A DNA stretch of 64,000 bases. It comes from a virus. The notes below the pieces were generated by a model. It worked only from the letters and a program-made list of their open reading frames with translations. It was not told where the DNA came from and did not search any database. The DNA is taken from positions 1-64,000 of IMG/VR virus record IMGVR_UViG_3300042691_041718. One strand, given 5' to 3'. Positions 4,707 to 59,994 of this stretch are shown one piece after another. A program made the translations under genes and the position numbers. Every line of letters starts with the position of its first letter. Within the stretch, counting starts at the first letter, position 1.

Positions 4707-5234
4707 ATGGAAGATAAAAAGATTGAAGTAGAGAGTATGAAAATTGATGATCAAAAAGTTGGTCTTGACTTAACTGGTAAGAATGAAGAAATTGTATTAG
4801 AAGATAATCCAAGACTACACGTTTCTCATTTAGAAGAACAATTAAAAGAATCAAATAATAATTATTTAAGATTAGCTGCTGAATTTGATAACTATAAAAA
4901 AAGAGTTATCAAAGAAAAAGAAGAATTAAGAAATAATACAAAAGTTTCTATGATTACTTCTATTTTGGATATGGACTCTGATATTTCTTTAGCAATCAAA
5001 AATATTAAAGATGATTCAGCTCGAGAAGGTGTTGAGTTAATCGCTTCTAAAATTGAAAAGTTTTTAAAAGGTCAAGGAATTGAAACTATTCAAACTGAAG
5101 AGTATGATACTGATTTACACGAAGTTATATCAATTTTACCAATTGGTGAAAAGAAAATTGTTGATGTTGTTAGTAAGGGATATACATTAGATGGTAAACC
5201 ATTTAGATATCCTAAAATCATATTAGGTGAATAA
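4707..5234 (+). CDS. grpE: Nucleotide exchange factor GrpE
   Basis: YLRLAAEFDNYKKR, YDTDLHEVI, VVSKGYTL motifs. Confidence 0.92.
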   Translation: MEDKKIEVESMKIDDQKVGLDLTGKNEEIVLEDNPRLHVSHLEEQLKESNNNYLRLAAEFDNYKKRVIKEKEELRNNTKVSMITSILDMDSDISLAIKNIKDDSAREGVELIASKIEKFLKGQGIETIQTEEYDTDLHEVISILPIGEKKIVDVVSKGYTLDGKPFRYPKIILGE

Positions 5235-5770
5235 TGAACTTACCAGTAAACAAAAAAAGCTTTATAGAATTATTACAACAAGACTTATATAAACAAAGTC
5301 TTGTTGATTCTATGCTTACTGGTGTTGATGATGAATTAAAATCAAATCTTAAATCTGATTTAGAATATGTTTTAGATAATAGAATTGAGGTTTTTAGTTT
5401 ATTATCTGGTAAAATTGGTGATGATGAGGATGAACTAGAAGTACTTATCATACCAGCCATTAGAAAAACTTGGTCTATGGTTTTTATAAACAAACCAACT
5501 TTATTTAATTTCTCGGAATATGGTGATAAAAAGCTAGAATTATTTCAACTATATTGGGATGTTGATGATTTTATCAACTATTTAGTTGACTTTCTACCAA
5601 AAATTAAAAATTGTTTAATAGAGTTTAAGTATTTAGATATGGGTATAGAAACTTTAAACTTAGTTTGTCAAAACTATATAAACAAAATGATTTCTAATTG
5701 TAGAAATAAAACATATGATGAAATTAAATTAGAGATAAGAGATTTGAAACTTAAAAAGACATTAAAATGA
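5234..5770 (+). CDS. Hypothetical protein with C-terminal RDxKL tag
   Basis: 178 aa, ends IRDLKLKKTLK. Confidence 0.7.
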   Translation: MNLPVNKKSFIELLQQDLYKQSLVDSMLTGVDDELKSNLKSDLEYVLDNRIEVFSLLSGKIGDDEDELEVLIIPAIRKTWSMVFINKPTLFNFSEYGDKKLELFQLYWDVDDFINYLVDFLPKIKNCLIEFKYLDMGIETLNLVCQNYINKMISNCRNKTYDEIKLEIRDLKLKKTLK

Positions 5771-6093
5771 ATTGGTATATCGAAAGTACTAGAACAGATA
5801 AAAACTATTTAAGAGTAGTTAATGAGACTGTTGGTGAAGTAATGGACTACTTTTGTGATGAGGTTAATAAAATAGATGAGGAAGAGTTTGATGAAGATAA
5901 AATCATTGAACTATGTAGAGATATTATGAATAAACTACCAATTTTAAGATTTCATACAAAAAAAGATTATAATTGGACTACTTATGAAAATGATTCATTT
6001 TGGTTTGATTATAATTCAAATACAAAAATAAGATTTAATGAACCTCTTAAATCTATTAAAAGAGACATATTACTAAATAATATATTAAAATAA
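5767..6093 (+). CDS. Hypothetical protein with C-terminal RDxxL tag
   Basis: 108 aa, ends KRDILLNNILK. Confidence 0.7.
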   Translation: MNWYIESTRTDKNYLRVVNETVGEVMDYFCDEVNKIDEEEFDEDKIIELCRDIMNKLPILRFHTKKDYNWTTYENDSFWFDYNSNTKIRFNEPLKSIKRDILLNNILK

Positions 6094-6105
6094 AAAATCT
6101 AAAAA

Positions 6106-7176
6106 ATGAATAAAGACTATTATACTATTTTAGGAGTTAATAAAGGAGCAACTGATGATGAAATTAAAAAAGCTTATCGTAAGATGGCTATGCAGTTTCA
6201 TCCAGATAAAAATCCTAATAATCCAGAAGCAGAGGCTAAATTTAAAGAGGCGGCTGAAGCTTATGAAACTCTTAGCGATCCTTCTAAACGCCAGAGTTAT
6301 GATAGATTTGGTTCAACTGGTGGTAATCCATTTGGAGGAGGTAATCCATTTGGTGGTGGTCACGGATTTTCAATGGATGATATATTTTCACAGTTTGGTG
6401 ATATCTTTGGTGGTAATCCTTTTGGTGGAAGACAACAACAAAGACAAAGAACTAAAAAAGGTGGTGATTTAAGAATTAAAGTTGTTGTTAATATTGATGA
6501 GATACTTAAAGGAACAACTAAAAAATTAAAATACAGAAGACAAGTAAAATGTAATCCTTGTGATGGAAAAGGAGGTTCTGATGTAAGAGAATGTTTAGTT
6601 TGTAATGGAACAGGACAAAGAGTTGTTGTTCAAAATACACCATTTGGACAAGTAAGAACTCAAACACATTGTCCAGATTGTGGAGGTTCTGGTGAACAAA
6701 TTCACAATAAGTGTAATCATTGCCATGGAGATGGTACTACTTTACAAGAACAAGTAGTTGATATTCAAGTACCAGCAGGTGTTTCAAATGGAATGCAGTT
6801 GAAAATGAATGGTAATGGAAATGATGTTAGAAATGGAATACCAGGTGATCTTTTTATTATTATAGAAGAAGCTCAAGACTTCTCATTCAAAAGAGAAGGT
6901 AATAATATAGTTGTAGAAAAAACAATATCTGTTATAGATGCTCTTTGTGGTAATAATATAACTGTATCAACACCACATGGTGATATACCGGTTTTAGTTG
7001 AAGCTGGAACAGAACACGGGAAAACAATTAGAATTTCAGGTAAAGGTATTCCAGACTTAAATTATGGTTTAGGAGATCTTTATATAAAATTTAATTTGAA
7101 AATACCAAAAGATATTCCACTTGATGAAAGAATGATTTTAGAGAAGTTTAAAAACTCAAATACATTTAAAGTATGA
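6106..7176 (+). CDS. dnaJ: Chaperone DnaJ (type I)
   Basis: J-domain with HPD, G/F-rich linker, four CxxCxGxG repeats. Confidence 0.97.
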
Positions 7177-7346
7177 AAGTAGAAATAGTTGATGGTAAAT
7201 ATATTTTACACGGAGTTTTACAAAAATTTGATCGAATGAATAGGAATAATGGTAGAATATACCCAGATAATTTGTTCATTGAAGAATTGAGACGATGGAT
7301 AATTTCAAATAGACAATCTAAAATTAGAAAAATATATTCAAAATAA
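7173..7346 (+). CDS. 57-aa mini-protein resembling the N-terminus of T4 gp21-type prohead protease, plus C-terminal tag
   Basis: [57 protein letters not shown]; ATGA overlap with dnaJ; followed by terminator. Confidence 0.65.
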
Positions 7347-7374
7347 AAGAGAGAATTAAATTCTCTCTTTTTTT
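7346..7374. terminator. Bidirectional intrinsic terminator
   Basis: AAAAGAGAGAAT-TAA-ATTCTCTCTTTT between convergent genes. Confidence 0.8.
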
Positions 7375-7375
7375 A

Positions 7376-7552: not shown

Positions 7553-7622
7553 AACTCTCCGATTTTGTCTTACAAATATAGTAAAATTATTTTAATATAT
7601 ACACTAAAATAAAATAATTTTT

Positions 7623-11028: not shown

Positions 11029-11030
11029 GT

Positions 11031-14469: not shown

Positions 14470-15429
14470 ATGGAAGAACATATTTTAAAAGAAAACAAAA
14501 GTCGTTTTGTGATGTTTCCGTTGAAATATCATGACATTTGGGAAAAGTATAAAACTGCTGAAATGTCATTTTGGACGAGCGAAGAGATTGATTTAGCACA
14601 AGATTTAACTGACTGGAATGAAAAATTAAATGATGATGAAAAACATTATATTAAAAATGTTTTAGCATTCTTCGCTGCATCTGATGGTATCGTAAATGAA
14701 AACTTAGCTGAGAATTTCTTAAAAGAAGTTCAGTATCCAGAGGCTAAAAGTTTTTATGGTTTTCAAATAGCAATGGAGAATGTTCACTCTGAAACTTACT
14801 CTTTATTGATTGATACTTATATCAAAGATTCTAAAGAAAGAGATCATTTATTCAATGCTATTGAAACAGTACCATCTGTTAAAAAGAAAGCTGAGTGGGC
14901 ACTTAAATGGATTGAATCTGATTCATTTGCTGAAAGATTAATTGCCTTTGCTGCTGTTGAAGGTATCTTTTTCTCTGGATCATTCTGTTCTATTTTCTGG
15001 TTAAAGAAAAGAGGTTTAATGCCAGGTTTAGCATTCTCTAATGAGTTAATTTCAAGAGATGAAGGTTTACACTGTGAGTTCGCTTGTTTGTTACATAACA
15101 AATACATCACGAATAAAGTTAGTGCTGAAAGAATTACTGAGATTATTACTGAAGCAGTTGAGATTGAAAAAGAATTCGTTACTGATTCTTTACCAGTTTC
15201 TTTAATTGGTATGAACGCTAAGATGATGCAACAATACATAGAGTTCGTTGCTGACTTCTGGTTAACTGAATTAGGTTGTAAGAAAGTTTATAACTCTGAA
15301 AATCCTTTTGATTTTATGGATATGCTTTCTTTACAAAACAAATCTAACTTCTTCGAGAAAAGAGTTTCTGAATATCAAAAAGCTTCTGATAAGAATATTG
15401 ACTTTGATAGTTTAGATGATGATTTCTAA
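14470..15429 (+). CDS. nrdB: Ribonucleotide reductase class Ia beta subunit
   Basis: [47 protein letters not shown]. Confidence 0.97.
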
Positions 15430-15769
15430 GATTGATTTTTTAAAGGACTTTAAATTCATTGCAAAACCAGATGAATATTATGTTGGTGGAACCGAAGTTA
15501 CAATAGAATCTGATTACACTGAATGGAATCAAAATCTATTAGTTTCAAGTGGTTGGGGATTTTTCAGAGGACTTACAATGGTTTCGTATAGAGGATATGA
15601 TGGTGAATTACCAAGAATGGATGGAGACACTGCTAGTTTTGCTGAGTTTGATATTTATTACAAAGATGAATTATTAAGTGAAGAAATTACATATGGGGAT
15701 TTACTTAATATGATTAAGTCTGAATCGAGAAATGAAATAATAGAAGAAATAATAAAACCACTCAATTGA
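15416..15769 (+). CDS. Hypothetical protein with C-terminal RNxxI tag
   Basis: Ends [14 protein letters not shown]. Confidence 0.65.
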
Positions 15770-16130: not shown

Positions 16131-16493
16131 ATGAAAAAACTTAAATTATTTGAGAGTTTTAACTTTGAATCCGAATTATCGGACTTAGTAAACTCTATAC
16201 CCGATTCTGATATTCCATCTCAAACAAATATCATAACTAAAATTGGAGATAAAATTATTTATACCGAAGGTTGGTGTGATAGATGTTTTTCAAACTATGA
16301 TGTTTATGATAGAGATGAAATGGTACAAATGGCTAAAGAACTTGGTGAAAAGAGATTAAAAGATATTCCAAGATTACCACAATATAAAATTAGGTTTGAA
16401 GGATATGAATTAGAAGATGTTAAGTTCTATGATTTACCGGATAACTCATATAATTATGCACTGTCGGTTGGTATTTATAGTCGTAAAAATTAA
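16131..16493 (+). CDS. Hypothetical protein with CTS-like leader
   Basis: Starts MKKLKLFESFNFE. Confidence 0.7.
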   Translation: MKKLKLFESFNFESELSDLVNSIPDSDIPSQTNIITKIGDKIIYTEGWCDRCFSNYDVYDRDEMVQMAKELGEKRLKDIPRLPQYKIRFEGYELEDVKFYDLPDNSYNYALSVGIYSRKN

Positions 16494-26721: not shown

Positions 26722-26741
26722 TTAATTTAATCACCTTTTTT
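26710..26741. terminator. Bidirectional intrinsic terminator
   Basis: AAAAAAAGGTGATT..AATCACCTTTTTT. Confidence 0.8.
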
Positions 26742-26888
26742 GTATATTTTATTAATTTTATTTCTTCTACTCATTGTTACTTTTGGAAAAAGTCTAAATA
26801 GTTCATTCATAATTTCTTTATCAATAGACTTAGCTAATTCTTGAGAAAGTAACTTCGATAACTCATCACTGGGATTAAACTGTTTCAT
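26727..26888 (-). CDS. 53-aa mini-protein resembling a gp23-type major capsid segment, plus C-terminal tag
   Basis: MKQFNPSDELSKLLSQELAKSIDKEIMNELFRLFPKVTMSRRNKINKIYKKGD; start overlaps the end of 26875..27558. Confidence 0.6.
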   Translation of the reverse strand: MKQFNPSDELSKLLSQELAKSIDKEIMNELFRLFPKVTMSRRNKINKIYKKGD

Positions 26889-35398: not shown

Positions 35399-37588
35399 TT
35401 ATTCATCTTTCTTTTTTCTTGTTCGTTTTGGTTTCTCAACCTTAACATCATCATTCTTTACTTCTGGTAGTAAATGTTCTTGTAACTCTTTAATTTCACT
35501 TGGTGTGTGGATAGGTTTAATAAAAGATTGTTCATCCTCTTTATTATAATCACATAAGAATTTTGTTCCTTCTTCTGGATTATTTTCAATAATATAATCA
35601 GTAATTATATCATCAACCCATCTTTGAATAGCTCTCTTTAAAGGTCTAGCACCAAATTTAGGATCATAACCAACTTCAACAAGATGATCTTTTAATTCAT
35701 CTGTGATTTCAATTGGGAAACCAATGTCAGATGCTCTCTTAATTGTTTTATTTAATTCTAAATCAACAATTTTCAAGATTTCATTTTTACCTAAATCTCT
35801 AAAGTAGATAATGTCATCTAATCTATTGATAAACTCAGGAGCAAATTTATTTTTCAACTCTTTATCTAAAATCGCCTTAATGTGTTCTTCATTTTGACTT
35901 TCTCTTGTTTTAGTAGAGAAACCAACTCCAGTACCAAAATCTTTAACTTGTCTTGTACCTACGTTAGAAGTCATTAAAATAATACAATTTTTAAAACTTA
36001 CTTTTCTACCGTGTGAATCAGTCATGTGACCATCATCTAACATTTGTAAGAATAAGTTAAATACCTCAGGATTTGCTTTTTCAATCTCATCAAAAAGAAT
36101 AACAGAATAAGGTTTTCTTCTAATTCTATCAAGAACGTTACTATCTTCATAACCAACATATCCTGGAGCTGAACCTTGAATTTTAGAAATTGAAATTTTA
36201 TCCATATATTCAGACATATCCAATCTAATTAAAGAGTCCTCAGAGTCAAATAGATATTTAGCGATTTGTTTAGCCAACTCAGTTTTACCAACACCAGAGT
36301 TACCAATCAACATACCACTGAATACAGGTCTGTTAGCATCTTTCATACCAACTCTACCTCTTTGAATAGCTCTAACTACTTTCTTAACAGCTTCATCTTG
36401 ACCAACTACTTTACCAGCAATTTCTTGACCCATTTTAGCAAGTCTATTGTTTTCCTTTTCACTTACTTTTTGTAAAGGAATACCTGTAATCATTGATACA
36501 ACCTCTGCTACATTATCCTCAGTTACAATTTGACGATTTTTAGATGATTCTTCTTCCCAGTTTTTTCTAGCCTTTTCCAAAGCATCGTTCAACTTTCTCT
36601 CAGTATCTCTTAATTTAGCAGCCTCTTCGTATTTTTGAGATCTGATAACATCATGTTTTTGATCCTTAATCTCCAATATTTTGTTTTCAATATCTGTAAT
36701 TTCTTTTGGAACAACAATATTTGAAATATGAACTCTTGATCCAGCTTCATCCATAGCATCAATAGCCTTATCTGGTAAAAATCTATCAGTCATATAACGA
36801 GAAGTTAAATCAACACAAGCCTTAATTGCTTCCGGTGTGTAAGTAACATTGTGATGTGACTCATATTTATCTTTAATATTACCAATGATAATCATTGTCT
36901 CTTCTGGAGTAGCAGGTTCAACTTGAACTTTTTGAAAACGTCTTTCTAACGCTCCATCTTTTTCAATGTGTTTTCTATACTCGTCTAAAGTAGTAGCACC
37001 AATGATTTGAATTTCACCTCTTGCTAAAGCTGGTTTAAACATATTGGAAGCATCCATTGATCCAGAAGCTCCACCAGCACCAATCATAGTATGAATTTCA
37101 TCAATGAAAAGGATGACATCAGGATTTTTTTCCATTTCAGCCATTAAAGCCTTAATTCTTTCCTCAAATTGTCCACGGTATTTAGTACCAGCGACCATAG
37201 ATGCTAAGTCAAGCATAACAACTCTTTTATTAAAAAGAAGTCTAGATACTTTTCTTTGAACAATTCTAAGTGCTAATCCTTCAGCAATTGAAGATTTACC
37301 AACACCTGGTTCACCAATTAAAATTGGATTGTTTTTCTTTCTACGAGAAAGAATTTGTGAAACTCTTTCAATTTCTTTTTCACGACCTACGATAGGGTCT
37401 AATCTACCCTCTTCAGCCATTTTAGTCAAATCACGACTATATGTATCTAAAACTGGAGTTTTAGATTTAGTATCAGATTTCTTAGAAGATGAAGAGAATG
37501 TCTTATCATCATCATCATCATCTTCAATAGCCATTCTCACATCAGGTAAGTTTTTGTAATACTGATTGTCTTTATTAGTTTTTCCCAT
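35399..37588 (-). CDS. clpC: ClpC-like AAA+ unfoldase lacking the N-terminal domain
   Basis: Two Walker A (GEPGVGKS, GNSGVGKT), FIDEIH, UVR middle domain, GVGF loop, FGARPLKR. Confidence 0.92.
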   Translation of the reverse strand: MGKTNKDNQYYKNLPDVRMAIEDDDDDDKTFSSSSKKSDTKSKTPVLDTYSRDLTKMAEEGRLDPIVGREKEIERVSQILSRRKKNNPILIGEPGVGKSSIAEGLALRIVQRKVSRLLFNKRVVMLDLASMVAGTKYRGQFEERIKALMAEMEKNPDVILFIDEIHTMIGAGGASGSMDASNMFKPALARGEIQIIGATTLDEYRKHIEKDGALERRFQKVQVEPATPEETMIIIGNIKDKYESHHNVTYTPEAIKACVDLTSRYMTDRFLPDKAIDAMDEAGSRVHISNIVVPKEITDIENKILEIKDQKHDVIRSQKYEEAAKLRDTERKLNDALEKARKNWEEESSKNRQIVTEDNVAEVVSMITGIPLQKVSEKENNRLAKMGQEIAGKVVGQDEAVKKVVRAIQRGRVGMKDANRPVFSGMLIGNSGVGKTELAKQIAKYLFDSEDSLIRLDMSEYMDKISISKIQGSAPGYVGYEDSNVLDRIRRKPYSVILFDEIEKANPEVFNLFLQMLDDGHMTDSHGRKVSFKNCIILMTSNVGTRQVKDFGTGVGFSTKTRESQNEEHIKAILDKELKNKFAPEFINRLDDIIYFRDLGKNEILKIVDLELNKTIKRASDIGFPIEITDELKDHLVEVGYDPKFGARPLKRAIQRWVDDIITDYIIENNPEEGTKFLCDYNKEDEQSFIKPIHTPSEIKELQEHLLPEVKNDDVKVEKPKRTRKKKDE

Positions 37589-37628: not shown

Positions 37629-37976
37629 TTATTTTTCATCAGAAGTTTTTTCTTCTGGTAGTATTTGTTCTAATCTTTCGTTTCTTTCATAAGCTTTATC
37701 CTTGATACCCCACTCTTTACTCTTTATTGTAAAAGATAAAATATTATCAAAAATATCCATCGTTTTTATACTAGCTGAAAACCCCTTTGATTTATTATCT
37801 TCCCAATCAAAAACTTTTTTACTCGAATAGTAATTAAGTATTATATCAAAATAAGTTGGATTAGATTTAGTATCTATTGAAAAAAAACTAGAAGTCCAAC
37901 TATTATCAATAGTGAATTGATGTTCAGATTTAATAATCTCGAAAATATTATCTTCTATTTTTAACCAAGTTGTCAT
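37629..37976 (-). CDS. Hypothetical protein with C-terminal RNxRL tag
   Basis: ERNERLEQIL. Confidence 0.65.
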   Translation of the reverse strand: MTTWLKIEDNIFEIIKSEHQFTIDNSWTSSFFSIDTKSNPTYFDIILNYYSSKKVFDWEDNKSKGFSASIKTMDIFDNILSFTIKSKEWGIKDKAYERNERLEQILPEEKTSDEK

Positions 37977-38585: not shown

Positions 38586-39074
38586 TTATTTTAGTTTAAT
38601 AGAAAGACTACGATTACTAAATTGTTTTAATCCGGTGACTTCCAATAAACTCTTTTTATTTATAAATTCGGGAATATTTAATTCATAATCTTCTGATGGT
38701 ATTTCAATCTCAGCAATAATTAAGTGATAATTATCTTTAAATAAATCAACTTCCCATTTTAAGTCACCATCTGGATAAACCCATCTTTCTTTTCTTATAT
38801 GACGAGCGTTTAATTTATTTGTATAACACTTAGTTTTAAACTTATCAAACTCTTTTTTAGATATTTCTTTTTCTACTTCTTCGTTTGACATATCATTAAT
38901 TCTATATTTTATGGTATGAATCCATTTCTTACCATTTACATTAGAATCGTATTGTCTAACTCTTTCCCAAATACCTTCTTTATTTTTAAAATAAAATTGG
39001 TCTATTTTTATAATCTCACTTGGAAGAATATCAGGCATTGCCTTTAAAAGGAATTTTCTTTCAATTTCTATCAT
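38586..39074 (-). CDS. CYTH domain protein
   Basis: EIERKFL (ExExK), KERW, WEVD.F, AEIE. Confidence 0.88.
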   Translation of the reverse strand: MIEIERKFLLKAMPDILPSEIIKIDQFYFKNKEGIWERVRQYDSNVNGKKWIHTIKYRINDMSNEEVEKEISKKEFDKFKTKCYTNKLNARHIRKERWVYPDGDLKWEVDLFKDNYHLIIAEIEIPSEDYELNIPEFINKKSLLEVTGLKQFSNRSLSIKLK

Positions 39075-40032: not shown

Positions 40033-40517
40033 TTTCTCATTATAGAGAATTTATCTTCTGGTTTAACTATATTAAGTTTTTCACAAGCCATCATAAAAGA
40101 GTCCATTATAGAATAAACATCTTCCATTTCTGTTACTTCATAATCTCTAATCTCCCAATTATCTTGATCGTCATCTTCAACATCTTTCAATATTAAAGTA
40201 ATAACATAAGTATCTTCTATAAAAGCTAATCCAGCTTGAGCATAAAAAGTCATACCTTGTACTGGTTTATATGAAGTTGCATAAAAAGCTACAAATCTAT
40301 CTCCATCATGATCGACTAACTGTGACTGAAACTTAGTTAGTATTGGATATTGAATTAAAACATTCTCAACTAATTTATCTGTATTCTCATCACCAGAACT
40401 TAAAGGTATTTTTGTAAAATTTTTAGAAATCTCTTTATCCATTTCTCCCTTTAAATAAGGTATTTCAAATCTTGATTTTAAATCTTCATCATCAAAAAAC
40501 TCAAAAAACTTTTTCAT
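40029..40517 (-). CDS. Hypothetical protein with CTS-like leader
   Basis: Starts MKKFFEFF. Confidence 0.65.
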   Translation of the reverse strand: MKKFFEFFDDEDLKSRFEIPYLKGEMDKEISKNFTKIPLSSGDENTDKLVENVLIQYPILTKFQSQLVDHDGDRFVAFYATSYKPVQGMTFYAQAGLAFIEDTYVITLILKDVEDDDQDNWEIRDYEVTEMEDVYSIMDSFMMACEKLNIVKPEDKFSIMRN

Positions 40518-42433
40518 TATATTTCTTTATTTTTTTCATCTAAATAATCTAAAAGATTATTGATTAAATTATCGGCTCTATCATAAAGTTCTTTATTCTT
40601 TAACTTATTAGCTACATAATAATTAATATTTTTATTTGTATAAAACGTTTCTATTAAATTATCAGGAACCCAAACTCCAGAATATTTAAGTTGCATTACG
40701 AATGGCATTACGACATTTTTGGCATTATTTGAAAAACCATCATCAAATACATCGGAATATGATTCTGGTAATTCTTTACCCTCATAATCATCAGCACCGT
40801 CATCACCATGTGCGTAAAATCCACCAACTTTACCTTCTAAATGATTTCTTAGAAGATTGTCATATTTACCAGACTTAGCGAACTTACCAGTAACTTCTGA
40901 TCTTTTAATATTATCAGAACCCATTAGTTTCTTGGCATCATCAATTGTAAGAGTTTGATTAACACTGACCAATCTATCAAAAAGAGTTTTAACTTGTGAT
41001 GATAAGGAGTGCCAGTGTATTGGAGAAAATACTAAAAAAGCATCAGCCTCTTGTAGTAATTCATAAACATTTAACTCTGAAAGTAAATCAGGTTCTTTCA
41101 TCCCTTTGAAATAACAACTACAAGGAAAGTGACAATTGTGAACTTCTATACCTTCACATATAAATTTATGTGATTTTGAAACAGATATATCATAAACATT
41201 TGATCTACCAATTTCTTCTATTTTTTCGACTTTACCATAATAGTCATAATTTTTAGATTTTCTATAAGAAATTTTTTTAAATTTATAATCCTTATTAAAT
41301 ATTCCTATTTTTTCCATAAAAATATTAGCATTAAGGCCACTTATAACTAACATAGATGCTCTTTTTATAAATTTATTAAACCTAAAAGTTTCTATATGAT
41401 CCAAATAGGTTATAGATGATTTTATACCAAATTTAGAAAGTAGCAATTGACAATCTCTTAAAGAATCTTTACTAACACTTGTTAGATTTATTTCATAATA
41501 ATCGTTTCCTCTATTATTTCTTTTAATAATTGATCCATCACTAGCAAACCAACCATTTAAAAAATTAGAAACTTGACTTTTTGATGAATTCATTATGGAT
41601 TCTGGAATTCTTCGATCATATATATTCTTGTTTTTTTCTTCAAATATAAGATTGTTGATAAATAAATTGGTTTCATTGTCATTAAATTTTATCCATTTAA
41701 CTTCGGTATTTTTTGATATAACTCCCTTCTCAGAAATTGAGATATTAAAATTATTAGATAGTTTTTCAATTAGAATTTCATCTCTTACATCATAACATAA
41801 TTTAAGTCTTTTATGATGAACCGCTCCATCTCCCCATAATAAGCCACATAAAAGATATTTATCTAAATTTGATTCATCTTCTTTAAATTCACCAGTAAAT
41901 TTAAATGGTATTCTATCACCGGTTTTTAGATTCTTAACATCGATCCATTCTTCAGTATATCCTTTTAGTTTTTTTTTATTATTATTTTTGTAAATAGGAT
42001 TTATTACTTTTATAGGATGATTATCAGTTAATTTTATTTTTCTTCCGTCGCTTGTTGTAACCTCATATATAATAGAATTATCACCGGTTTTCATAAAATT
42101 ATAAACGGTTCCGGTTGATAATTCATCTCCTATTAAGATATCTTCAATTTTTTTATATCCATATTTAGTCTCAACTCTCTCACCTTCTGCGATACAATGA
42201 AATCCGCCAGCAGTTGAAACACAACCCTTACAAGGTTGTATATTTGGTTTTTTAGATTTATTTACAGATAAATCAATAACTTTTATTTCTAAAAATGGAG
42301 ACCATTTTTCTATAACATACTCAATTACTTTGTGAGTTTTTGATTCCATATTAGGACAAGTATCAGGATCTCTAGGTGATCCTTGAAAAATCAATACTTT
42401 CCATTTTTTATCTCCGAGTTTTCTTATCTTCAT
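40517..42433 (-). CDS. NAD(P)H-dependent FMN reductase / iron-sulfur flavoprotein family, intein-containing
   Basis: FQGSPR, CKGC..C..C.C, ADAFLVFSPIHW..S...K.LFDRL. Confidence 0.85.
   Translation of the reverse strand: MKIRKLGDKKWKVLIFQGSPRDPDTCPNMESKTHKVIEYVIEKWSPFLEIKVIDLSVNKSKKPNIQPCKGCVSTAGGFHCIAEGERVETKYGYKKIEDILIGDELSTGTVYNFMKTGDNSIIYEVTTSDGRKIKLTDNHPIKVINPIYKNNNKKKLKGYTEEWIDVKNLKTGDRIPFKFTGEFKEDESNLDKYLLCGLLWGDGAVHHKRLKLCYDVRDEILIEKLSNNFNISISEKGVISKNTEVKWIKFNDNETNLFINNLIFEEKNKNIYDRRIPESIMNSSKSQVSNFLNGWFASDGSIIKRNNRGNDYYEINLTSVSKDSLRDCQLLLSKFGIKSSITYLDHIETFRFNKFIKRASMLVISGLNANIFMEKIGIFNKDYKFKKISYRKSKNYDYYGKVEKIEEIGRSNVYDISVSKSHKFICEGIEVHNCHFPCSCYFKGMKEPDLLSELNVYELLQEADAFLVFSPIHWHSLSSQVKTLFDRLVSVNQTLTIDDAKKLMGSDNIKRSEVTGKFAKSGKYDNLLRNHLEGKVGGFYAHGDDGADDYEGKELPESYSDVFDDGFSNNAKNVVMPFVMQLKYSGVWVPDNLIETFYTNKNINYYVANKLKNKELYDRADNLINNLLDYLDEKNKEI
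41135..42196 (-). mobile_element. Intein (354 aa) with LAGLIDADG homing endonuclease
   Basis: N-terminus CIAEGERV, block B TDNHP, LCGLLWGDG and FLNGWFASDG, block F VYDISV, C-terminus VHN then +1 Cys. Confidence 0.95.
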
Positions 42434-42478: not shown

Positions 42479-43816
42479 ATGGACTATATAAGAGACTATA
42501 AATCATTTGTAAAATCTGTTAGAAAACAGGTTCCAATTATTGAAAAGCAGATATTTAATGACTTCTCAAATTCGATATGGGAAATGAGTTTAAGATCATC
42601 TATATTCACTAACGAAGAAAAATTATTCATTAAAGAGAATTTAATAAGTCATAAAATTGATTTATTGAAAGAAGAATTTGGAATTAAAGATTTCTTTAAA
42701 ACAGTTTATGATAATGGTAAAAAGGTTGGTGGTAAAATGTTTTCTACTATAAAAGAAAAACTTTTAAAGATTAAAGAAGGTATGAAGTCTTTAATATCAG
42801 GTGTTGTAAAGTTTTTTGAAGCAATTATAAAAGTTCTTTTAAATATTAGTCAAAACAATGTTAAGAACATAACAACTCAATTCAAACAACCAATTGACAA
42901 GAAAATAGTTGAGTTGATAACTCAGAAGAAAATAGACAAAGAAGAATTAAAAAGTGATTTATCAAACATTAAACAAACAACTGACTTTTTAAAAACAAAG
43001 TTTGTTTCATCATTCAATAAAAAAATTGAAACGGTAGATGATAAAGTTATCTCAGATGCTGAAGCTGAAGTTTCAAATATAGAAGATGAATTAAAATTAG
43101 AATCATTTGATATTCTTAAAAGTTTTTACTCAATAAATGAGGATTTTAAAGTAGGTGATAAAGTTTCTTATACAAGGGATAATGGTGAAACTGCTGAGAA
43201 AGAAATTTTTAAAATTGATGGTGATACTATAACTTTCAAAGATAAAGACGGAAATGAGTTTACTAAAAATGTTGGTGATGTTAAGGCTGTTAAAAGTGTT
43301 TCTGATAAAGTTTTAGATGCTAAAGATTGGTTTATGAAATGGTTTTTAGATATGAAACAAACCTCACCACCAGAGGAAGGAAAAACTAAATGGTGGATGA
43401 AATTAGTATTGAAAGTTATTCTTTTGTTATTAGCGCCTATGAAAGCTTTAATCTCAACTTCTATAAATTTAATATCTAAAAATGCAGCAAAAGGTCTTTC
43501 AAATTTTGTAAAAGCATTAGGTGGTCCGGGTGTGTTTGAATTCGCAGCATTAAACGCTGTTATATTAGGTATTCCTAATTTAATTGATTCACCAAGTAAA
43601 GTTATATTTACTCAGTTTGGAGTTTCTCAATTAGAGGAACCTTGGAATTTGGTATTTAAGTTATTCTCTAAGTTAATAGTAGATATTTCTGGAATGGATT
43701 CTGTTATTAAGATATTTGGTTTGATTTGTTTACTATTAGTTTTAGAAGGATTGATTTCATCTTACTTCAAAAAAGAAGGTGTTGAAATTAATTTAGAGAA
43801 GAAACCACAGAGTTAG
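42479..43816 (+). CDS. Putative virion/membrane protein
   Basis: Late-type promoter, coiled-coil middle, hydrophobic C-terminal helices. Confidence 0.6.
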   Translation: MDYIRDYKSFVKSVRKQVPIIEKQIFNDFSNSIWEMSLRSSIFTNEEKLFIKENLISHKIDLLKEEFGIKDFFKTVYDNGKKVGGKMFSTIKEKLLKIKEGMKSLISGVVKFFEAIIKVLLNISQNNVKNITTQFKQPIDKKIVELITQKKIDKEELKSDLSNIKQTTDFLKTKFVSSFNKKIETVDDKVISDAEAEVSNIEDELKLESFDILKSFYSINEDFKVGDKVSYTRDNGETAEKEIFKIDGDTITFKDKDGNEFTKNVGDVKAVKSVSDKVLDAKDWFMKWFLDMKQTSPPEEGKTKWWMKLVLKVILLLLAPMKALISTSINLISKNAAKGLSNFVKALGGPGVFEFAALNAVILGIPNLIDSPSKVIFTQFGVSQLEEPWNLVFKLFSKLIVDISGMDSVIKIFGLICLLLVLEGLISSYFKKEGVEINLEKKPQS

Positions 43817-44085
43817 TCTATGGATTTCAATAAATCTTCTAGTCTTTTATCTCTCAAGTAAGGTATAAAATCTTTTTTTGTGAATTTATGATGTCCTTTT
43901 ATTTCCATTTTTATATTAGGATCTTTTCGACTTGTTAAGTTAAAATAGTAAACAGTCTCAACAACATCATTTAAAATAGCAATTTTATTTATTTTAAGAT
44001 CCTTGACATCTAAATATGGATTTTCAGATGATGATTTTTTATAACATAATTCGTGTATATACTGTTCAATAATTTCCTTGTTCAT
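43813..44085 (-). CDS. Hypothetical protein with C-terminal RDxRL tag
   Basis: LRDKRLEDLL. Confidence 0.65.
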   Translation of the reverse strand: MNKEIIEQYIHELCYKKSSSENPYLDVKDLKINKIAILNDVVETVYYFNLTSRKDPNIKMEIKGHHKFTKKDFIPYLRDKRLEDLLKSID

Positions 44086-45364: not shown

Positions 45365-46135
45365 TTATTTTTTAGCAATCAAAAGTTTAACTCTGTTATT
45401 TCCGGTTGATAAACAACGATGGTATCCATCAATCAATCTATAATTATCTCCTTTTTTAATGGCAACACCTCTTATTAACTTAGTTAATACCGTGTTATAA
45501 TTTTTATCATCATAGAAATATCCTCTGTATTTTACAGATCCTTTCTCAATCTCTTTTTTACATTTTTTTACATGATGTTCACTACCAAAAATAATTTTAT
45601 CCAAATCAACAATTTCTAATGACCATTCACTTTCTTTTAATTCAGGTAGAATTTTATTATATTCTAATTTTAAGAGATACTCAACTCGTTCACCTAAAGG
45701 TTCAATTGAAAGAGCTTTAATTATCTCTGAGTTTAATTCATCACAGATATTTTGTTTAAGTAAAATATCTTCGATTTCTTGACCATAATATCCACCACAA
45801 ATATCAACATCCCAAGAATTCGGATCATATACTTTCCATTTTCTAAGAATACGATCTATCATATAAAGATCCATATCTTTTCCATAACCATTTAGCAAAA
45901 GATCTAACTTAACATTTCTCTTTATTGATAAATCATTATCACCATCATTGATAGTATCATAAATAATATTTGATATACGAGTAATATCAACATCTGTGAT
46001 ATAAACATCTGTTATCATACCACAACGACATATACCTTCATCATGGCATCCATTATTCTCACAATCATATGTGACATTGTGATCTTCACTAACACCATTA
46101 TAATAGAAGTTAATATCTCTTAAATTAAATATCAT
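45365..46135 (-). CDS. Hypothetical protein with ParB/Srx-like C-terminus
   Basis: YRLIDGYHR; N-terminal Cys cluster CENNGCHDEGICRC. Confidence 0.55.
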   Translation of the reverse strand: MIFNLRDINFYYNGVSEDHNVTYDCENNGCHDEGICRCGMITDVYITDVDITRISNIIYDTINDGDNDLSIKRNVKLDLLLNGYGKDMDLYMIDRILRKWKVYDPNSWDVDICGGYYGQEIEDILLKQNICDELNSEIIKALSIEPLGERVEYLLKLEYNKILPELKESEWSLEIVDLDKIIFGSEHHVKKCKKEIEKGSVKYRGYFYDDKNYNTVLTKLIRGVAIKKGDNYRLIDGYHRCLSTGNNRVKLLIAKK

Positions 46136-47501: not shown

Positions 47502-47753
47502 TTAATCTAATAATTTATTAATTTTATCATCTCTTTCTTGTCTTTTTTCGTATAATTCTATTTCTTTTATGTTAAGTCTATACCACATTTTAAAATCTGA
47601 TATGTAATAAACAAATTCATCCTCACCAGAGGAATCGTCTTTGTAACAAGTTGATCCAAACATGAATTCTTGAAAGCTTTTGTAAAACTCTCTAGGAATT
47701 TCTGATTCTCTTACATCGTATTTGTTATTGTATATTTCAGTTAGTGTTCTCAT
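47502..47753 (-). CDS. Hypothetical protein with C-terminal RDxKI tag
   Basis: ERDDKINKLLD. Confidence 0.7.
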   Translation of the reverse strand: MRTLTEIYNNKYDVRESEIPREFYKSFQEFMFGSTCYKDDSSGEDEFVYYISDFKMWYRLNIKEIELYEKRQERDDKINKLLD

Positions 47754-48081
47754 TGTCTAAAATTTCGTTTAGTTTTCTATCTCTATCTTCTTGTGTTGTT
47801 ACATTTAATCCACTTTCCCATTTAGATTTATAATCTAAAATGAATTTTTTACCAACTTCAATTTCATTTACTTTTAACCCATATCTTTTAATATCATCAA
47901 AAGTTGGTTTTGTATTTCCATAGGTACATATTTCAGCCGTTAATGATATTTCATTGTTTTTAGAAATATAAGATATAACAAAATATTCCCAAGTTACTTT
48001 TTTGGTATCAAAAATACCATAAACTCCTAATTTATTATGATCTTTTATATCAGAATCATAAAGAACTCTACCTTTTATCAT
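47737..48081 (-). CDS. Hypothetical protein with C-terminal RDxKL tag
   Basis: DRDRKLNEIL. Confidence 0.7.
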   Translation of the reverse strand: MIKGRVLYDSDIKDHNKLGVYGIFDTKKVTWEYFVISYISKNNEISLTAEICTYGNTKPTFDDIKRYGLKVNEIEVGKKFILDYKSKWESGLNVTTQEDRDRKLNEILDNENTN

Positions 48082-48356
48082 TTTAATAAATCGTTTAGTT
48101 TGTTGTCTCTAATAATTGATTTTAAAAAATCATCTGGATCACCTTTGTACTCTACTCTATATTGAATAGTTGAATTTATGTTTATTGTAATTATAGGGTT
48201 AATATCTTTAAACTTCAAAGTATCGATTGAATCGTAACTTTCTATAATAACACTATCAACAAATTCAACGTATCTAGGAAATTCATCTTGTTGACTTTTT
48301 ATATTTTCTCTTGAAATTGAAACTATATTATCTTTGTTTGTTTTTAGATAAATCAT
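48078..48356 (-). CDS. Hypothetical protein with C-terminal RDxKL tag
   Basis: IRDNKLNDLLK. Confidence 0.7.
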   Translation of the reverse strand: MIYLKTNKDNIVSISRENIKSQQDEFPRYVEFVDSVIIESYDSIDTLKFKDINPIITININSTIQYRVEYKGDPDDFLKSIIRDNKLNDLLK

Positions 48357-56615: not shown

Positions 56616-56732
56616 ATTGTATATATAAATAAATTATTCCCTCCTTGATAATTTATTTTGGAGTTTTTAAAAAAATTTATAAAGGGGGAATTATTTTTTA
56701 ATATATAAAGTATAAAAAAGAATTTAATTAAA

Positions 56733-57956: not shown

Positions 57957-58000
57957 GAAAGTCGAAGGGTACTTAACCCTAAAAAATAAAATAAAATAAT

Positions 58001-58177
58001 ATGTCAAAACAAGAAGTTTATGAACAATTAAAAGATTTATGGGAAAAATTTGACGCAGCTCATAATGGTAAATTTAAGAAAAACGCTGGTGAAGCAAGAA
58101 AATTCATTGGTGAAATTAAGAAGTTAGCTACTCCTTATAGAGCGGCTTCAGTTGAAGAAGAAAAAGGTGATAAATAA
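58001..58177 (+). CDS. Histone H1-like (Hc1-type) small nucleoid protein
   Basis: KNAGEARKFIGEIKKLATPYRAASVEE resembles Bacteroidota Hc1 helical pattern. Confidence 0.6.
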   Translation: MSKQEVYEQLKDLWEKFDAAHNGKFKKNAGEARKFIGEIKKLATPYRAASVEEEKGDK

Positions 58178-58304
58178 TAAAACTTTTCTACAAAAAGAAT
58201 TTATAATTAATATCTTCTTTCATATTTTCCTTATTTAGAAAAATAAGGTGGTGGAGTCAAATCCAATATTGGATGGCCCAAACACAGAATAGTGTTTTTA
58301 AAAT

Positions 58305-58336
58305 AAAAAAGACCTCAATTTTGAGGTCTTTTTTTT
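58305..58336. terminator. Bidirectional intrinsic terminator
   Basis: AAAAAAGACCTCAA-TT-TTGAGGTCTTTTTT. Confidence 0.85.
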
Positions 58337-58655
58337 ATTTCTTCAACTTCTTAATTTGGTCACGAAGTTCAGCAGCTTTTTCATATTCTTCTTTTTCAAC
58401 TGCTATTTTTAAAGCGGATTCAAGCTCTTTGACATCAATACTCTTTTTGTTTTCAGTGTATGTTTTAACATACGTTGATGTTCCATCCAGGCTAACCCAA
58501 GTTTCTTTTTTAATAGTCATTCCATTAGATTCAAATTCTTCTGTTGTTTTGGTCCAATTTTTATCACCATCTTTTGGATAATTCATTTTATTTTCAAAAA
58601 TATTTTCATTTGAAAATAAATCAACTAAATCAAATAAATAATAAATTTTTCTCAT
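58335..58655 (-). CDS. UVR-domain protein
   Basis: LESALKIAVEKEEYEKAAELRDQIKKL. Confidence 0.8.
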   Translation of the reverse strand: MRKIYYLFDLVDLFSNENIFENKMNYPKDGDKNWTKTTEEFESNGMTIKKETWVSLDGTSTYVKTYTENKKSIDVKELESALKIAVEKEEYEKAAELRDQIKKLKK

Positions 58656-58764
58656 AACTTTTTTTTCTTTTTTTATATAAGTATCTTCAAATTATATGCC
58701 ATTAGACTAATTATGACATTTTGACATAAATATATACATATAATAGATTAAAAATAAGAAAGAT

Positions 58765-58950
58765 ATGACAATTTTTAGGTACTCAAAAGATGGAAAACTT
58801 TACTCAATCATTCAAACTGATAAGGATGGTGTTAAGAGATATACTGCGGTTCCATATGGTCATTCATCTAATCCAATTACTGATTGTGACATAAAAGATT
58901 TCTCTATACAATCAATTAAGAATAATAATAGAAATAGTAGTTTTTTATAA
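58765..58950 (+). CDS. Hypothetical protein
   Basis: 61-aa ORF. Confidence 0.55.
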   Translation: MTIFRYSKDGKLYSIIQTDKDGVKRYTAVPYGHSSNPITDCDIKDFSIQSIKNNNRNSSFL

Positions 58951-58972
58951 TTAATTTTCATATATTTGTAAA

Positions 58973-59470
58973 ATGAAGGTAATATTTTTAGATCATGACG
59001 GAGTGGTTTGTTTAAGTCGTGAATGGAGTAGTCGTTTTCAGAAAAAGAAACGATTTATTCTTGAGGGTGGAGACGAAGATGATATTCCTGCTTACATTCG
59101 TTTAGACAATTTCAATAAGATGGCAGTTGATGTTTTAAATGATATAATATTAACATCTGGTGCTGAGATAGTTTGTTCTAGTGATTGGCGTTTACATGCT
59201 ACGTTAGATGAAATGAAAGATTTATTTCACCGATATGGTGTTATAAAAGGTCCTATTGATTTCACACCAGAACTTCAAACAATCACTAAGAAAGCTGATA
59301 TACGAGTAGATGAAATTAACTTATGGTTAAGTAATCATCCAGAGGTAACACATTGGGTTGCTATTGATGATATGGATTTAAGTGAATTAGATAATTTCGT
59401 TAAAACTCGTGAGCGAGAAGGTTTAAAACAATGTAACATATCAAGTAAGATTTTAAAGTTTTTAGAATGA
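58973..59470 (+). CDS. HAD-family phosphatase (Swiss Army Knife RNA-repair type)
   Basis: IFLDHDGV, IVCSSDWR, R..EI..WL, WVAIDD. Confidence 0.85.
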   Translation: MKVIFLDHDGVVCLSREWSSRFQKKKRFILEGGDEDDIPAYIRLDNFNKMAVDVLNDIILTSGAEIVCSSDWRLHATLDEMKDLFHRYGVIKGPIDFTPELQTITKKADIRVDEINLWLSNHPEVTHWVAIDDMDLSELDNFVKTREREGLKQCNISSKILKFLE

Positions 59471-59994
59471 CATTAGAAGAATATAACTCATTATATGATA
59501 GTTTAATCAAGACTAAAATAACCGAAGATAATTTAGTCGATTTTCATAAGTTTACTAGATTTAGTCCTGAGAAGTTTGCTAAACGATTAGGTATTGATGA
59601 ATTAGAGTTCATCAAAAAGTGTAATAATGATAAAAAAGAAATACACAATAAAATACTTGGTTGGAAAAGAGTTAAAAAATTAAAGGGATATAACCCGAAA
59701 TCAAAACAAGAAATAAAGCGACATTGGGATAGAAAAAGTGGAGAAAATATAAAAGTAACTTATAACTTTCTTGTTTGTATTTGTACAAAATATTGTAAGT
59801 TAGACTATAATTATGGTAGTCGAAAATATAGATTTTACGAAGATATTAAGTATCTTTATTGTTGGGATCCTATTTATCATGGAATGATAATAATTTTAAA
59901 TGATAGGAATGAAGAATTCCGAGTAGGTGTTGAAGAATTCAATAAATATTTTAATGATTATAGAGATCATATAATTAACGATTTGTTAAATTAA
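59467..59994 (+). CDS. Hypothetical protein with C-terminal RDxxI tag
   Basis: YRDHIINDLLN. Confidence 0.65.
   Translation: MTLEEYNSLYDSLIKTKITEDNLVDFHKFTRFSPEKFAKRLGIDELEFIKKCNNDKKEIHNKILGWKRVKKLKGYNPKSKQEIKRHWDRKSGENIKVTYNFLVCICTKYCKLDYNYGSRKYRFYEDIKYLYCWDPIYHGMIIILNDRNEEFRVGVEEFNKYFNDYRDHIINDLLN

Follow-up and report, generated by a model that had tools for sequence, protein, structure and literature searches.

A shared C-terminal tail, a short helix with the core R-D-x-K-L-x-x-L-L, ends small, otherwise unrelated proteins encoded by roughly one gene in seven in an uncultured giant phage and the phages closest to it. The tail looks like an undescribed address label, and our best explanation, to which we assign a probability of roughly 35%, is that it serves as a portable docking handle for one partner, whose existence we infer. 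We found no family or publication matching the tail itself.

Enrichment and distribution of the tail

The tail was originally predicted from the window, that is the whole stretch of 64,000 nucleotides analysed (positions 1 to 64,000 of IMG/VR record IMGVR_UViG_3300042691_041718), as the pattern R-[DN]-x-[KR]-[IL]-x-x-[IL]-L at or near the end of 11 dissimilar ORFs. All 11 peptides were confirmed as C-terminal in their respective ORFs, each ORF being denoted by its low coordinate (Table 1). The pattern as worded is matched exactly by five of them (37629, 43813, 47502, 47737 and 48078), whereas 5234, 5767, 15416 and 59467 show only a relaxed form, and 7173 and 26727 a K-I-Y variant. Two internal copies had also been proposed: the one in 45365 is real and conserved in orthologues, but the one in 19676 (R-A-Q-K-I-L-K-I-F) is loose and could be due to chance. 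The consensus spans approximately 13 residues, [K]-[S/Q/A]-[E/I]-[I/L/Y]-R-[D/N/E]-x-[K/R/I]-[I/L]-[D/N/E/K]-x-[I/L]-[L/G]; the x positions of the motif vary freely, and an extension of 0-23 residues follows it among carriers.

Table 1. Tail-bearing ORFs and chaperone or unfoldase genes in the window.
Feature	Coordinates	Strand	Length (aa)	Tail	Tail nt	Context
GrpE	4707..5234	+				Pfam PF01025, E 3e-24; first gene of the grpE-tag-tag-dnaJ-tag run
Tail-variant ORFan	5234..5770	+	178	R-D-L-K-L-K-K-T-L-K	5738-5764	No Pfam/PHROG family; between grpE and dnaJ, start and stop overlap neighbours; W01 counterpart at identical operon position
Tailed ORFan	5767..6093	+	108	R-D-I-L-L-N-N-I-L-K	6061-6087	Directly upstream of dnaJ; LR745206.1 orthologue (461910-462242) still tailed
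DnaJ	6106..7176	+				Full-length: J domain, zinc-finger region, C-terminal domain
Variant-tail ORF	7173..7346	+	57	R-Q-S-K-I-R-K-I-Y	7311-7337	Overlaps dnaJ stop
Tailed ORFan	15416..15769	+	117	R-N-E-I-I-E-E-I-I + 4 residues	15728-15754	No co-directional gene downstream
Variant-tail ORF	26727..26888	-	~53	R-R-N-K-I-N-K-I-Y + 4 residues	26742-26768	
ClpC-like double-ring AAA+ unfoldase	35399..37588	-				Candidate reader
Carrier	37629..37976	-	115	R-N-E-R-L-E-Q-I-L + 9 residues	37659-37685	Directly upstream of ClpC-like gene; in the family A1 alignment tail invariant, extension variable
Carrier	43813..44085	-	90	R-D-K-R-L-E-D-L-L + 4 residues	43828-43854	Closes its own gene run; convergent gene next
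Two-part protein, internal tail	45365..46135	-	256	R-N-V-K-L-D-L-L-L-N-G (residues 73-81)	45893-45919	Same fused layout in IMG/VR contig and LR745206.1 orthologues
Carrier	47502..47753	-	83	R-D-D-K-I-N-K-L-L-D	47508-47534	Tailed orthologues in L001 and LR745206.1
Carrier	47737..48081	-	114	R-D-R-K-L-N-E-I-L + 6 residues	47758-47784	Post-motif extension made up by next-gene overlap
Carrier	48078..48356	-	92	R-D-N-K-L-N-D-L-L-K	48084-48110	
Carrier	59467..59994	+	175	R-D-H-I-I-N-D-L-L-N	59962-59988	I-I tail form, dominant in LR756504.1

Whole-genome statistics were computed on the 186-kb genome (244 ORFs, 59,720 aa) with shuffled proteins as control. The strict pattern occurs 15 times against 0.14 expected, with 11 copies within 12 aa of the C-terminus against 0.01 expected; for the relaxed pattern, the corresponding figures are 29 against 1.98 in total and 21 against 0.14 at the C-terminus. 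No copies were found in reversed sequences or at N-termini of the same 244 ORFs. When only the last 25 residues are shuffled, 0.02 to 0.25 copies are expected, and the K/I/L/N-rich composition of the tails is therefore no explanation for the enrichment. The initial observation is real and stronger than first stated.

As had also been noted, the codons differ: position 5 is encoded by CTT, CTA, CTC, TTA or TTG (Leu) or by ATT or ATA (Ile), and identical residues use identical codons at a rate of 0.66 compared to 0.59 expected in this genome, and 0.576 compared to 0.53 in LR745206.1. Because synonymous codons in the tails are nearly random, selection acts on the peptide, and it is at this level that the tail is maintained.

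The 634-kb relative LR745206.1 has the tail on 135 of its 962 ORFs (2.2 expected), and 59 of 317 ORFs in IMG/VR loci carry it. All seven orthologue pairs between the 186-kb genome and LR745206.1 retain the tail. Distinct versions occur in two more distant phages, LR756504.1 (R-K-x-I-I-[ED]-[ED]-L-L) and LR756501.1 (R-T-K-L-M-D-x-M-L), and scans of Lak-A1, LR756500.1 and LR756508.1 revealed no excess. The consensus thus varies between lineages while being uniform inside each genome across many unrelated carriers, as is expected if one reader co-evolves with the tail. Founder effects in tandem expansions are another possible source of a lineage-specific consensus; in the LR756501.1 array, codon identity is raised (0.76 versus 0.54).

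Carrier genes are clustered, forming 39 adjacent pairs where 22.9 are expected, and the grpE-tag-tag-dnaJ-tag run is conserved in LR745206.1. In the latter genome, carriers account for 26% in units behind host-type TAnnTTTG boxes compared to 5.9% behind the late-type promoter that precedes head genes, a bias not seen in the 186-kb genome.

Carrier bodies and predicted structure

BLAST clustering of 218 carriers gave 196 clusters, of which 178 are singletons, and in phmmer comparisons carriers were no more related to each other than small control proteins were. None of the carriers could be assigned to a Pfam or PHROG family, and body lengths range from 46 to 731 aa. A few bodies are fragments of the major head (capsid) protein, of the head protease extension or of the ClpC-like middle domain: two carriers in LR745206.1 are capsid-protein fragments and one is a head-protease fragment, and a ClpC-like middle-domain motif is copied in two carriers. 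Within the window, the body of 26727 matches Pfam Gp23 (major capsid protein) at E 0.0055, under the curated cut-off, and 7173 has only a weak likeness to a head-protease homologue (E 0.02-0.03), the gene at the equivalent position in LR745206.1 being a tailed head-protease fragment. The carrier bodies are of independent origin. In LR756504.1, genes of 70-100 aa are arrayed in tandem; paralogy can be detected for some of them, and they have the longer common ending F-W-T-L-A-E-Y-R-K-L-I-I-E-D-L-I. Enrichment, clusters and codons agree with the original prediction of a portable protein-level element located at or very near the C-terminus of dissimilar small proteins.

AlphaFold2 (AF2) predicts a C-terminal helix, with confidence in the tail below that of the body. 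For the 37629 carrier, the tail forms helix 94-105 with a mean pLDDT of 61; for the 48078 carrier, a compact beta body of seven strands (pLDDT ~90) is followed by a C-terminal helix at 74-91, the tail part of which has a pLDDT of 68. Both models combine a beta-rich body with a C-terminal helix cap, and the order of secondary-structure elements differs between them. The 48078 model gives weak matches to the PH domain, a fold with a C-terminal capping helix. The helix had been described as amphipathic; while the helical prediction agrees, the mean hydrophobic moment (0.22 versus 0.25 in body segments) is not raised, because the invariant Arg sits on the hydrophobic face.

A proposed docking handle and competing explanations

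We propose that the tail acts as a short linear motif, portable between proteins, at the end of a C-terminal helix projecting from small, unrelated accessory proteins. The invariant Arg and three aliphatic residues at +4, +7 and +8 would share one helical face and enter the groove of one common reader; the more than 100 different small proteins of each genome could then be handled as a single class, whether for recognition, recruitment or disposal. With less confidence, we suggest that this reader is part of the proteostasis machinery of the phage itself, composed of GrpE, DnaJ, DnaK, an N-domain-less ClpC-like unfoldase and a phage ClpP. Of 28 neighbours of chaperone and protease genes, 4 are carriers, compared to 15.5% genome-wide, which is no overall enrichment, and DnaJ and DnaK are also present in the tail-less Lak-A1. 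For ClpC, clamp, UVR and membrane readings of the partner, evidence is absent or negative. Since the extensions of 0-23 residues and the conserved internal copies indicate that a free C-terminus is not needed, a docking helix fits better than a classical C-terminal degron.

One particular form of docking, suggested in the original prediction, is that the tail is a degron or timer marking mostly early accessory proteins for unfolding and degradation by the phage ClpC-like protein with ClpP, or by a host protease, so that carriers are cleared as infection proceeds. The ClpC-like protein of the window has no Clp_N domain and would thus need another means of substrate recognition; its N-terminal stretch is acidic, its middle domain is of the UVR type and a V-G-F ClpP-docking loop lies at 555-557, and ClpP paralogues are encoded by LR745206.1 and LR756504.1. 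Its gene lies directly downstream of a carrier in this genome, LR745206.1 and one IMG/VR contig, and occurs in the three lineages with tails but in neither Lak-A1 nor LR756500.1; the copied middle-domain motif and the host-type promoter bias of LR745206.1 carriers also speak for this reading. The link is nevertheless weak: the N-terminal architecture differs across the three lineages, synteny is lost in the distant ones, where no carrier lies upstream of the gene, and LR756508.1 has the gene without tails. Together with LR756501.1, which has tails and no ClpP, the lack of promoter bias in the 186-kb genome, and extensions and internal positions unlike those of tags read via a free C-terminus, this makes a degron distinctly unlikely. 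Even less probable is head targeting. Here the tail would act at the C-terminus as the T4 capsid-targeting leader does at the N-terminus, or in the manner of scaffold and encapsulin cargo peptides, and attach carriers to the prohead core, the scaffold or the inside of the capsid so that they are packaged. In its favour, docking of cargo to HK97-fold shells by C-terminal helices is known from the P22 scaffolding protein and from encapsulins. Most of the few recognisable bodies derive from head proteins, the weak Gp23 and protease likenesses in the window point the same way, and a T4-type protease site, [LIV]-x-E, precedes 14 of 29 tails in LR756504.1. However, this site accompanies 9% of tails in LR745206.1, 8% here and none in LR756501.1, carriers of LR745206.1 are depleted behind the late-type promoter of head genes, and a cargo of more than 130 different proteins in one genome would have no precedent. 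Moreover, a T4-like family of N-terminal leaders, M-K-x-I-K-L-F-E-A-F, is already encoded in the 186-kb genome. That no ORF combines leader and tail, as had been pointed out, is true and uninformative, since with 7 leader proteins and 25 carriers in a total of 244 ORFs, an overlap of only 0.7 is expected.

Other explanations dispense with a reader. If carriers descended from a single small ancestor and had diverged until only the C-terminal helix is recognisable, this helix would be structural and address nothing. The partly paralogous arrays of LR756504.1 with their longer ending, the helix-capped beta-rich models and the PH-like matches of the 48078 model favour such a family; the range of body lengths, the preponderance of singletons and bodies made of pieces of capsid protein, protease extension or the all-helical ClpC middle domain argue against it, as do the unlike secondary-structure order in the two AF2 models and the lower confidence of the tail part of the 48078 helix relative to the body. 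We consider it rather unlikely. Self-association through a short coiled-coil-like helix, giving homo- or mixed oligomers of carriers, is unlikely: clustering of carrier genes and predicted helicity would agree with it, and the 0/+4/+7/+8 spacing with a polar, core-like Arg may resemble the register-setting residues of short coiled coils, but the hydrophobic moment is not raised, approximately nine constrained residues are few for a coiled coil to be stable, and an invariant Arg-Asp is not normally common to oligomerisation helices of unrelated proteins. Finally, the peptide could be the by-product of a nucleic-acid signal at gene ends, such as a recombination joint for cassette shuffling, a promoter or translational coupling. 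In 25 of 37 co-directional cases the motif ends -2 to +5 nt from the next start codon, L-G-I variants place GGT 4 nt ahead of the next ATG, and CTN codons for Leu at position 5 exceed the genome average. This extremely improbable reading is already largely refuted by nearly randomised synonymous sites, the freely variable x positions, the conserved internal copies and a backwards-read DNA control (9 versus 78 matches); also, 11 of 53 carriers lack a co-directional gene downstream, which excludes a translational-coupling signal.

Comparison with known systems

The N-terminal capsid-targeting sequence of T4 internal proteins (~10 residues) is likewise a short portable terminal peptide on unrelated small proteins in a T4-related phage. 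The tail differs in being C-terminal, unrelated in sequence and about ten times commoner (14% of ORFs); a protease site adjoins it in one lineage only. Encapsulin cargo-loading peptides, the coat-binding C-terminal helices of P22 scaffolding protein and microcompartment encapsulation peptides are similarly short, terminal and portable, but dock to a shell; they share no sequence likeness with the tail, and LR745206.1 carriers are biased in promoter class in a way that speaks against late, head-associated expression.

Clamp-binding tails (T4 gp43, gp33 and gp55 on gp45, the PIP-box and the bacterial beta-clamp motif) are also short, occur at the extreme C-terminus of many proteins and have aliphatics at i, i+3 and i+4 with flanking basic residues, and as with the tail such peptides would dock on one hub. 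However, the tail has no aromatic pair, its carriers are ORFans rather than replication or transcription proteins, and the C-terminus of the LR745206.1 polymerase is a T4-like M-D-I-F-G-G-F-K rather than the tail. Peptides read by Clp unfoldases or their adaptors (the ssrA tag, the MuA C-terminus and the SspB XB tail) share the C-terminal position on unrelated proteins and are read by one AAA+ machine; the phage unfoldase without its usual recognition domain and the ClpP of relatives extend the parallel, whereas sequence likeness is lacking, a free C-terminus is not required and the association with the unfoldase is inconsistent across genomes. Poxvirus ankyrin proteins offer a further likeness, a large viral repertoire of variable proteins with one C-terminal docking element, the PRANC/F-box-like domain; with ~60 residues, PRANC is a domain with a fold of its own, sits on ankyrin proteins that are paralogous and docks to host Skp1, whereas the tail is a 13-residue helix on non-homologous bodies.

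The C-terminal tail and the level of its conservation

The original prediction had listed eleven peptides of similar pattern at the ends of otherwise dissimilar ORFs, and all eleven were found at the C-termini of the ORFs named. We confirm and extend this observation: the tail, with the consensus R-D-x-K-L-x-x-L-L, is a portable helical motif at the C-terminus, maintained by selection and carried by unrelated accessory proteins in a sub-clade of the largest known phages. For statistics, 244 non-overlapping ORFs (59,720 aa) were taken from the whole 186-kb record, hereafter the genome. Within this set we counted 15 copies of the strict pattern R-[DN]-x-[KR]-[IL]-x-x-[IL]-L, of which 11 lie at most 12 residues from the C-terminus, compared to 0.14 and 0.01 in shuffled sequences. 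Relaxed to R-[DNE]-x-x-[IL]-x-x-[IL]-[LG], the pattern is present 29 times, with 21 copies C-terminal (0–12 residues), for an expectation of 1.98 and 0.14, and the N-terminal windows of the same ORFs contain none. Reversed sequences yielded 0–1 copies and shuffling of the last 25 residues 0.02–0.25. A K/I/L/N-rich composition had been put forward as a possible source of the C-terminal frequency; because the shuffled and reversed controls are far below the observed counts, composition is not the cause and the tail stands.

The sequence logo extends slightly upstream of the invariant arginine (R0), with K at -4, S/Q/A at -3, E/I at -2 and I/L/Y at -1, and nothing beyond. At +7 it is I/L, at +8 L/G, and aromatics are rare. 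Between tail and stop codon there are 0–9 residues, most often one.

A nucleic-acid signal behind the tail is nearly excluded. Codons differ at each constrained position, and the same-codon rate at residues identical between tails is 0.66 versus 0.59 expected in the genome and 0.576 versus 0.53 in the near relative LR745206.1; codon identity is thus near expectation, and recent DNA copying is not how the tails spread. Only a small array in LR756501.1 has raised codon identity (0.76 versus 0.54). The tail often ends 2 nt before the overlapping start codon of the next gene, and residues following it, when present, usually overlap with that gene. A translational-coupling or junction signal is not the cause, because 11 of 53 carriers, as we call the ORFs with the tail, have no co-directional gene downstream and because internal tail copies are conserved among orthologues. 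At tail position 5, leucine is encoded by CTN codons in 10 of 18 cases across all carriers of the genome, compared to 27% genome-wide; this bias possibly comes from frequent Ile/Leu exchange by first-base changes.

Distribution among huge phages and nature of the carriers

The window, the first 64 kb of a single-contig virus record of 186,465 bp (27% G+C; record classed linear, CheckV completeness estimate 69%), encodes a T4-type RNA ligase, a UvsX/RecA-like recombinase, full-length DnaJ, GrpE, a ClpC-like double-ring AAA+ protein and an intein-bearing flavodoxin-like gene. By UvsX similarity, the phages closest to it are LR745206.1 (634 kb, 85% identity) and LR756502.1 (642 kb), both huge and uncultured; LR756504.1 (636 kb, 59%), LR756501.1 (735 kb, 50%) and, at 34%, the Lak phages follow at greater distance. 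Passages of the huge-phage paper (PMC7162821) give these four accessions as the largest complete genomes of the 'Mahaphage' clade (634–735 kb) and Bacteroidetes as the predicted hosts of the clade; the tail is not mentioned in those passages.

In the complete genome of LR745206.1 the tail ends 135 of 962 ORFs, compared to 2.2 in shuffles. No function is known for the majority of huge-phage genes, and in the largest complete phage genomes that have been described one 13-residue signature would bring about 14% of the ORFs together as a single functional class; the share is 21% among ORFs of 200 aa or less and 4% among longer ones. An unbiased screen for gapped triplets over-represented in the final 16 residues picked up the tail and uncovered lineage-specific versions of it. 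The LR756504.1 version, [FW]-T-[LI]-x-E-[YH]-R-K-x-I-I-[ED]-[ED]-L-[LI], is the exact end of 28 of the 150 ORFs in the first 50 kb, and the LR756501.1 version, E-W-K-N-x-K-R-T-K-[LM]-[MI]-D-x-M-L-N, is found in 11 tandem genes. A DNA-pattern scan gave 78 hits versus 9 in the backwards control for LR745206.1 and 31 versus 15 for LR756504.1, with no excess in LR756501.1, Lak-A1, LR756500.1 or LR756508.1. One exact-codon pattern retrieved 26 loci from IMG/VR, where 59 of 317 ORFs (19 of 42 at one locus) have the tail. Among 1.84 billion representative proteins, none matched a tail profile at E <= 0.001; because so short a profile cannot reach significance, this search is uninformative on distribution. 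A language-model look-up of the tail segment returned unnamed clusters only, all under a useful score.

No family, structure or paper describing the tail was found in Pfam, PHROGs, the PDB or the literature: about 40 carriers scanned contained no Pfam-A or PHROG family and no profile match on the tail, the tail profile gave only a chance match, to a ribosomal protein, among PDB sequences, and the motif is not described in the literature searches made.

The carriers could be read as one hyper-diverged single family. After removal of the tail, BLAST groups the 218 carriers of five genomes into 196 clusters, of which 178 have a single member, and their phmmer relatedness is no greater than that among control small proteins. 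Furthermore, some bodies are pieces of other proteins, which shows that sequences with separate origins bear the tail: in LR745206.1 the major head protein is the source of two such fragments and the head-protease extension of one, and two orthologous carriers contain a copy of the ClpC-like protein's UVR-type middle domain. The 53-aa ORF 26727 (carriers are named by their low coordinate) has a sub-threshold Gp23 match, and no full-length capsid or head-protease gene lies within the 186-kb fragment. We rejected the idea that carriers are by definition 'mini-mimics of essential proteins', with significant fragment matches for only 4–5 of 218 carriers and weak matches for 12% of carriers versus 14% of controls. 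The share with a homologue in LR745206.1 is 28% for carriers, versus 42% for the remaining small ORFs and 59% for large ones; carrier turnover is faster than that of other genes. The tail is kept in all seven carrier orthologue pairs between the two genomes, and in the family of 37629, the carrier directly upstream of the ClpC-like gene, it is invariant while the extension beyond it varies in length and sequence.

AlphaFold2 models of the 48078 family (14 sequences) have a seven-strand beta body (pLDDT about 90) and a helix at residues 74–91, the tail part of which scores 68; the 37629 family has another order of elements, with the tail as a low-confidence helix at 94–105. Foldseek with the model of 48078-48356 returned weak PH-domain-like rows only. 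If the tail is helical, R0, +4, +7 and +8 lie on one face, and we consider it reasonable to infer a groove-docking helix with a salt bridge at the rim. A membrane-targeting amphipathic helix of the MinD/FtsA type is unlikely, because the hydrophobic moment is not raised (mean 0.22 versus 0.25 in body segments) and the segment is hydrophilic (mean hydrophobicity -0.25) with a net charge of +1.3.

Candidate readers and competing explanations

We give a probability of about 0.35 to the tail being a docking handle, a putative role in which one partner would read it. The ClpC-like protein is a candidate reader: it has no Clp_N domain and possesses a V-G-F loop, relatives encode ClpP, its gene is present in the three tail-bearing lineages and absent from the tail-less Lak-A1 and LR756500.1, and in three genomes a carrier directly precedes it. 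However, in LR756504.1 and LR756501.1 its N-terminal architecture is different and the preceding carrier is missing, the tail-bearing LR756501.1 has no ClpP, and LR756508.1 has the ClpC-like gene without tails. Known Clp degrons of the ssrA/MuA type are read via free C-terminal residues, whereas the tail tolerates extensions of 0–23 residues and has conserved internal copies. The Hsp70 system (DnaK/DnaJ/GrpE) is likewise a candidate, since the genome and LR745206.1 share the conserved run grpE-tag-tag-dnaJ-tag, in which starts and stops overlap; against it, the tail-less Lak-A1 has DnaJ and DnaK as well, and the neighbours of chaperone genes are not significantly enriched for carriers (4 of 28). 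The docking handle further competes with readings in which the tail sets a degradation timer or lets carriers associate with one another. Head targeting would agree with the recognisable carrier bodies, which are mostly head-derived, and with an [LIV]-x-E site, the type cut by the prohead protease, ahead of half of the LR756504.1 tails (14 of 29 at -4 to -2, compared to 13 of 149 in LR745206.1, 2 of 25 in the genome and none of 13 in LR756501.1; background 1.7% per position). The T4 capsid-targeting sequence is N-terminal, whereas 21 of 29 tail copies are 0–12 residues from the C-terminus and none is N-terminal. Against head targeting, LR745206.1 carriers are depleted, at 5.9%, behind T[AT]ATATATA, which precedes head genes, versus 26% behind the host-type TAnnTTTG (p = 2e-9). 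This promoter-class bias is significant in LR745206.1 but not seen in the genome, and the expression class deduced from promoter motifs is therefore only suggestive.

Two known motifs were tried and rejected. The spacing of [DN]-x-[KR]-[IL]-x-x-[IL]-L is PIP-box-like, but the tail is without an aromatic pair or an S-L-D-F-L-F-type consensus; a clamp-binding motif (T4 type or PIP-box) fails because the C-terminal half of the LR745206.1 polymerase PolB ends in a T4-like clamp-binding sequence, M-D-I-F-G-G-F-K, and not in the tail. No gp45-type clamp family turned up in the genomes examined. The likeness by eye of E-[YL]-R-D-x-I-x-x-L to UVR (PF02151) fails because profile comparison gives no support, hhalign against the ClpC-like alignment yielding a probability of 0.9%, outside the middle domain. 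Pfam had no UVR match on any tail, its sole match being the body of 103671-103979.

As a long shot, the largest phages known may possess an adaptor system of the F-box kind, in which more than 100 tailed small proteins per genome would serve one phage-encoded machine. Carriers would then be interchangeable target-recognition modules plugged in by their common C-terminal helix, and the machine, either the N-domain-less ClpC-like unfoldase with ClpP or the DnaK/DnaJ/GrpE set, would act on chosen host and phage proteins by unfolding, degrading or remodelling them. The fragments of the capsid protein, the head protease and the ClpC middle domain that bear a tail would serve, through mimicry, to recognise the corresponding assemblies.

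Should one partner read the tail as an address, discovery of that partner would assign hundreds of orphan proteins to a shared pathway at once and would provide a portable engineering tag. With its lineage-specific versions, the tail offers a natural experiment in co-variation by which the reader could be located.

Associated loci and further observations

Coordinates of further loci in the genome and its relatives
Feature	Location	Strand	Remark
grpE, tagged ORF, tagged ORF, dnaJ, tagged mini-ORF	window 4707-7346	+	overlapping stops/starts
Same grpE/dnaJ operon order	LR745206.1 463475 down to 460435		last gene is a tailed head-protease fragment
ClpC-like protein	window 35399-37588	-	N-terminal run of six Asp, V-G-F ClpP-docking loop, basic C-terminal end
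CYTH-domain protein	window 38586-39074	-	two genes upstream of ClpC-like gene
Flavodoxin/FMN-reductase-like gene	window 40517-42433	-	interrupted by an intein with a LAGLIDADG endonuclease domain
Leader M-K-x-I-K-L-F-E-A-F, seven proteins	window 16131-16493, 60337-60678, 62336-63871; genome 64905-68305, 81052-82650, 152939-153403		resembles T4 capsid-targeting sequence
ORF of 130 aa	genome 121616-122008	-	residues 7-47 55% identical to LR745206.1 major head protein N-terminus
Family B DNA polymerase, two genes ~100 kb apart	LR745206.1 130568-131992; 232803-234344	-; +
Head genes	LR745206.1 197781-204292		T[AT]ATATATA 25-35 nt upstream of each, candidate late promoter
Six adjacent proteins, 198-369 aa	LR756500.1 11601-17016 (locus L006)		common ending N-A-D-D-F-G-[FML]-[FL]-D-N

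The statement that no ORF carries both the N-terminal leader and the tail proved true (none of the seven leader proteins), for an expected overlap of only 0.7. Units of LR745206.1 other than the head genes have Bacteroidetes-type TAnnTTTG boxes. The common ending at L006, in a tail-less relative, differs from the tail and possibly marks a paralogue family. DnaK and two ClpP paralogues of the relatives, together with the ClpC-like unfoldase, make up a near-complete phage proteostasis set. The CYTH/ClpC-like neighbourhood recurs in LR745206.1 and at one IMG/VR locus (L001), and metagenomes contain hundreds of ClpC-like copies that are 83–91% identical.
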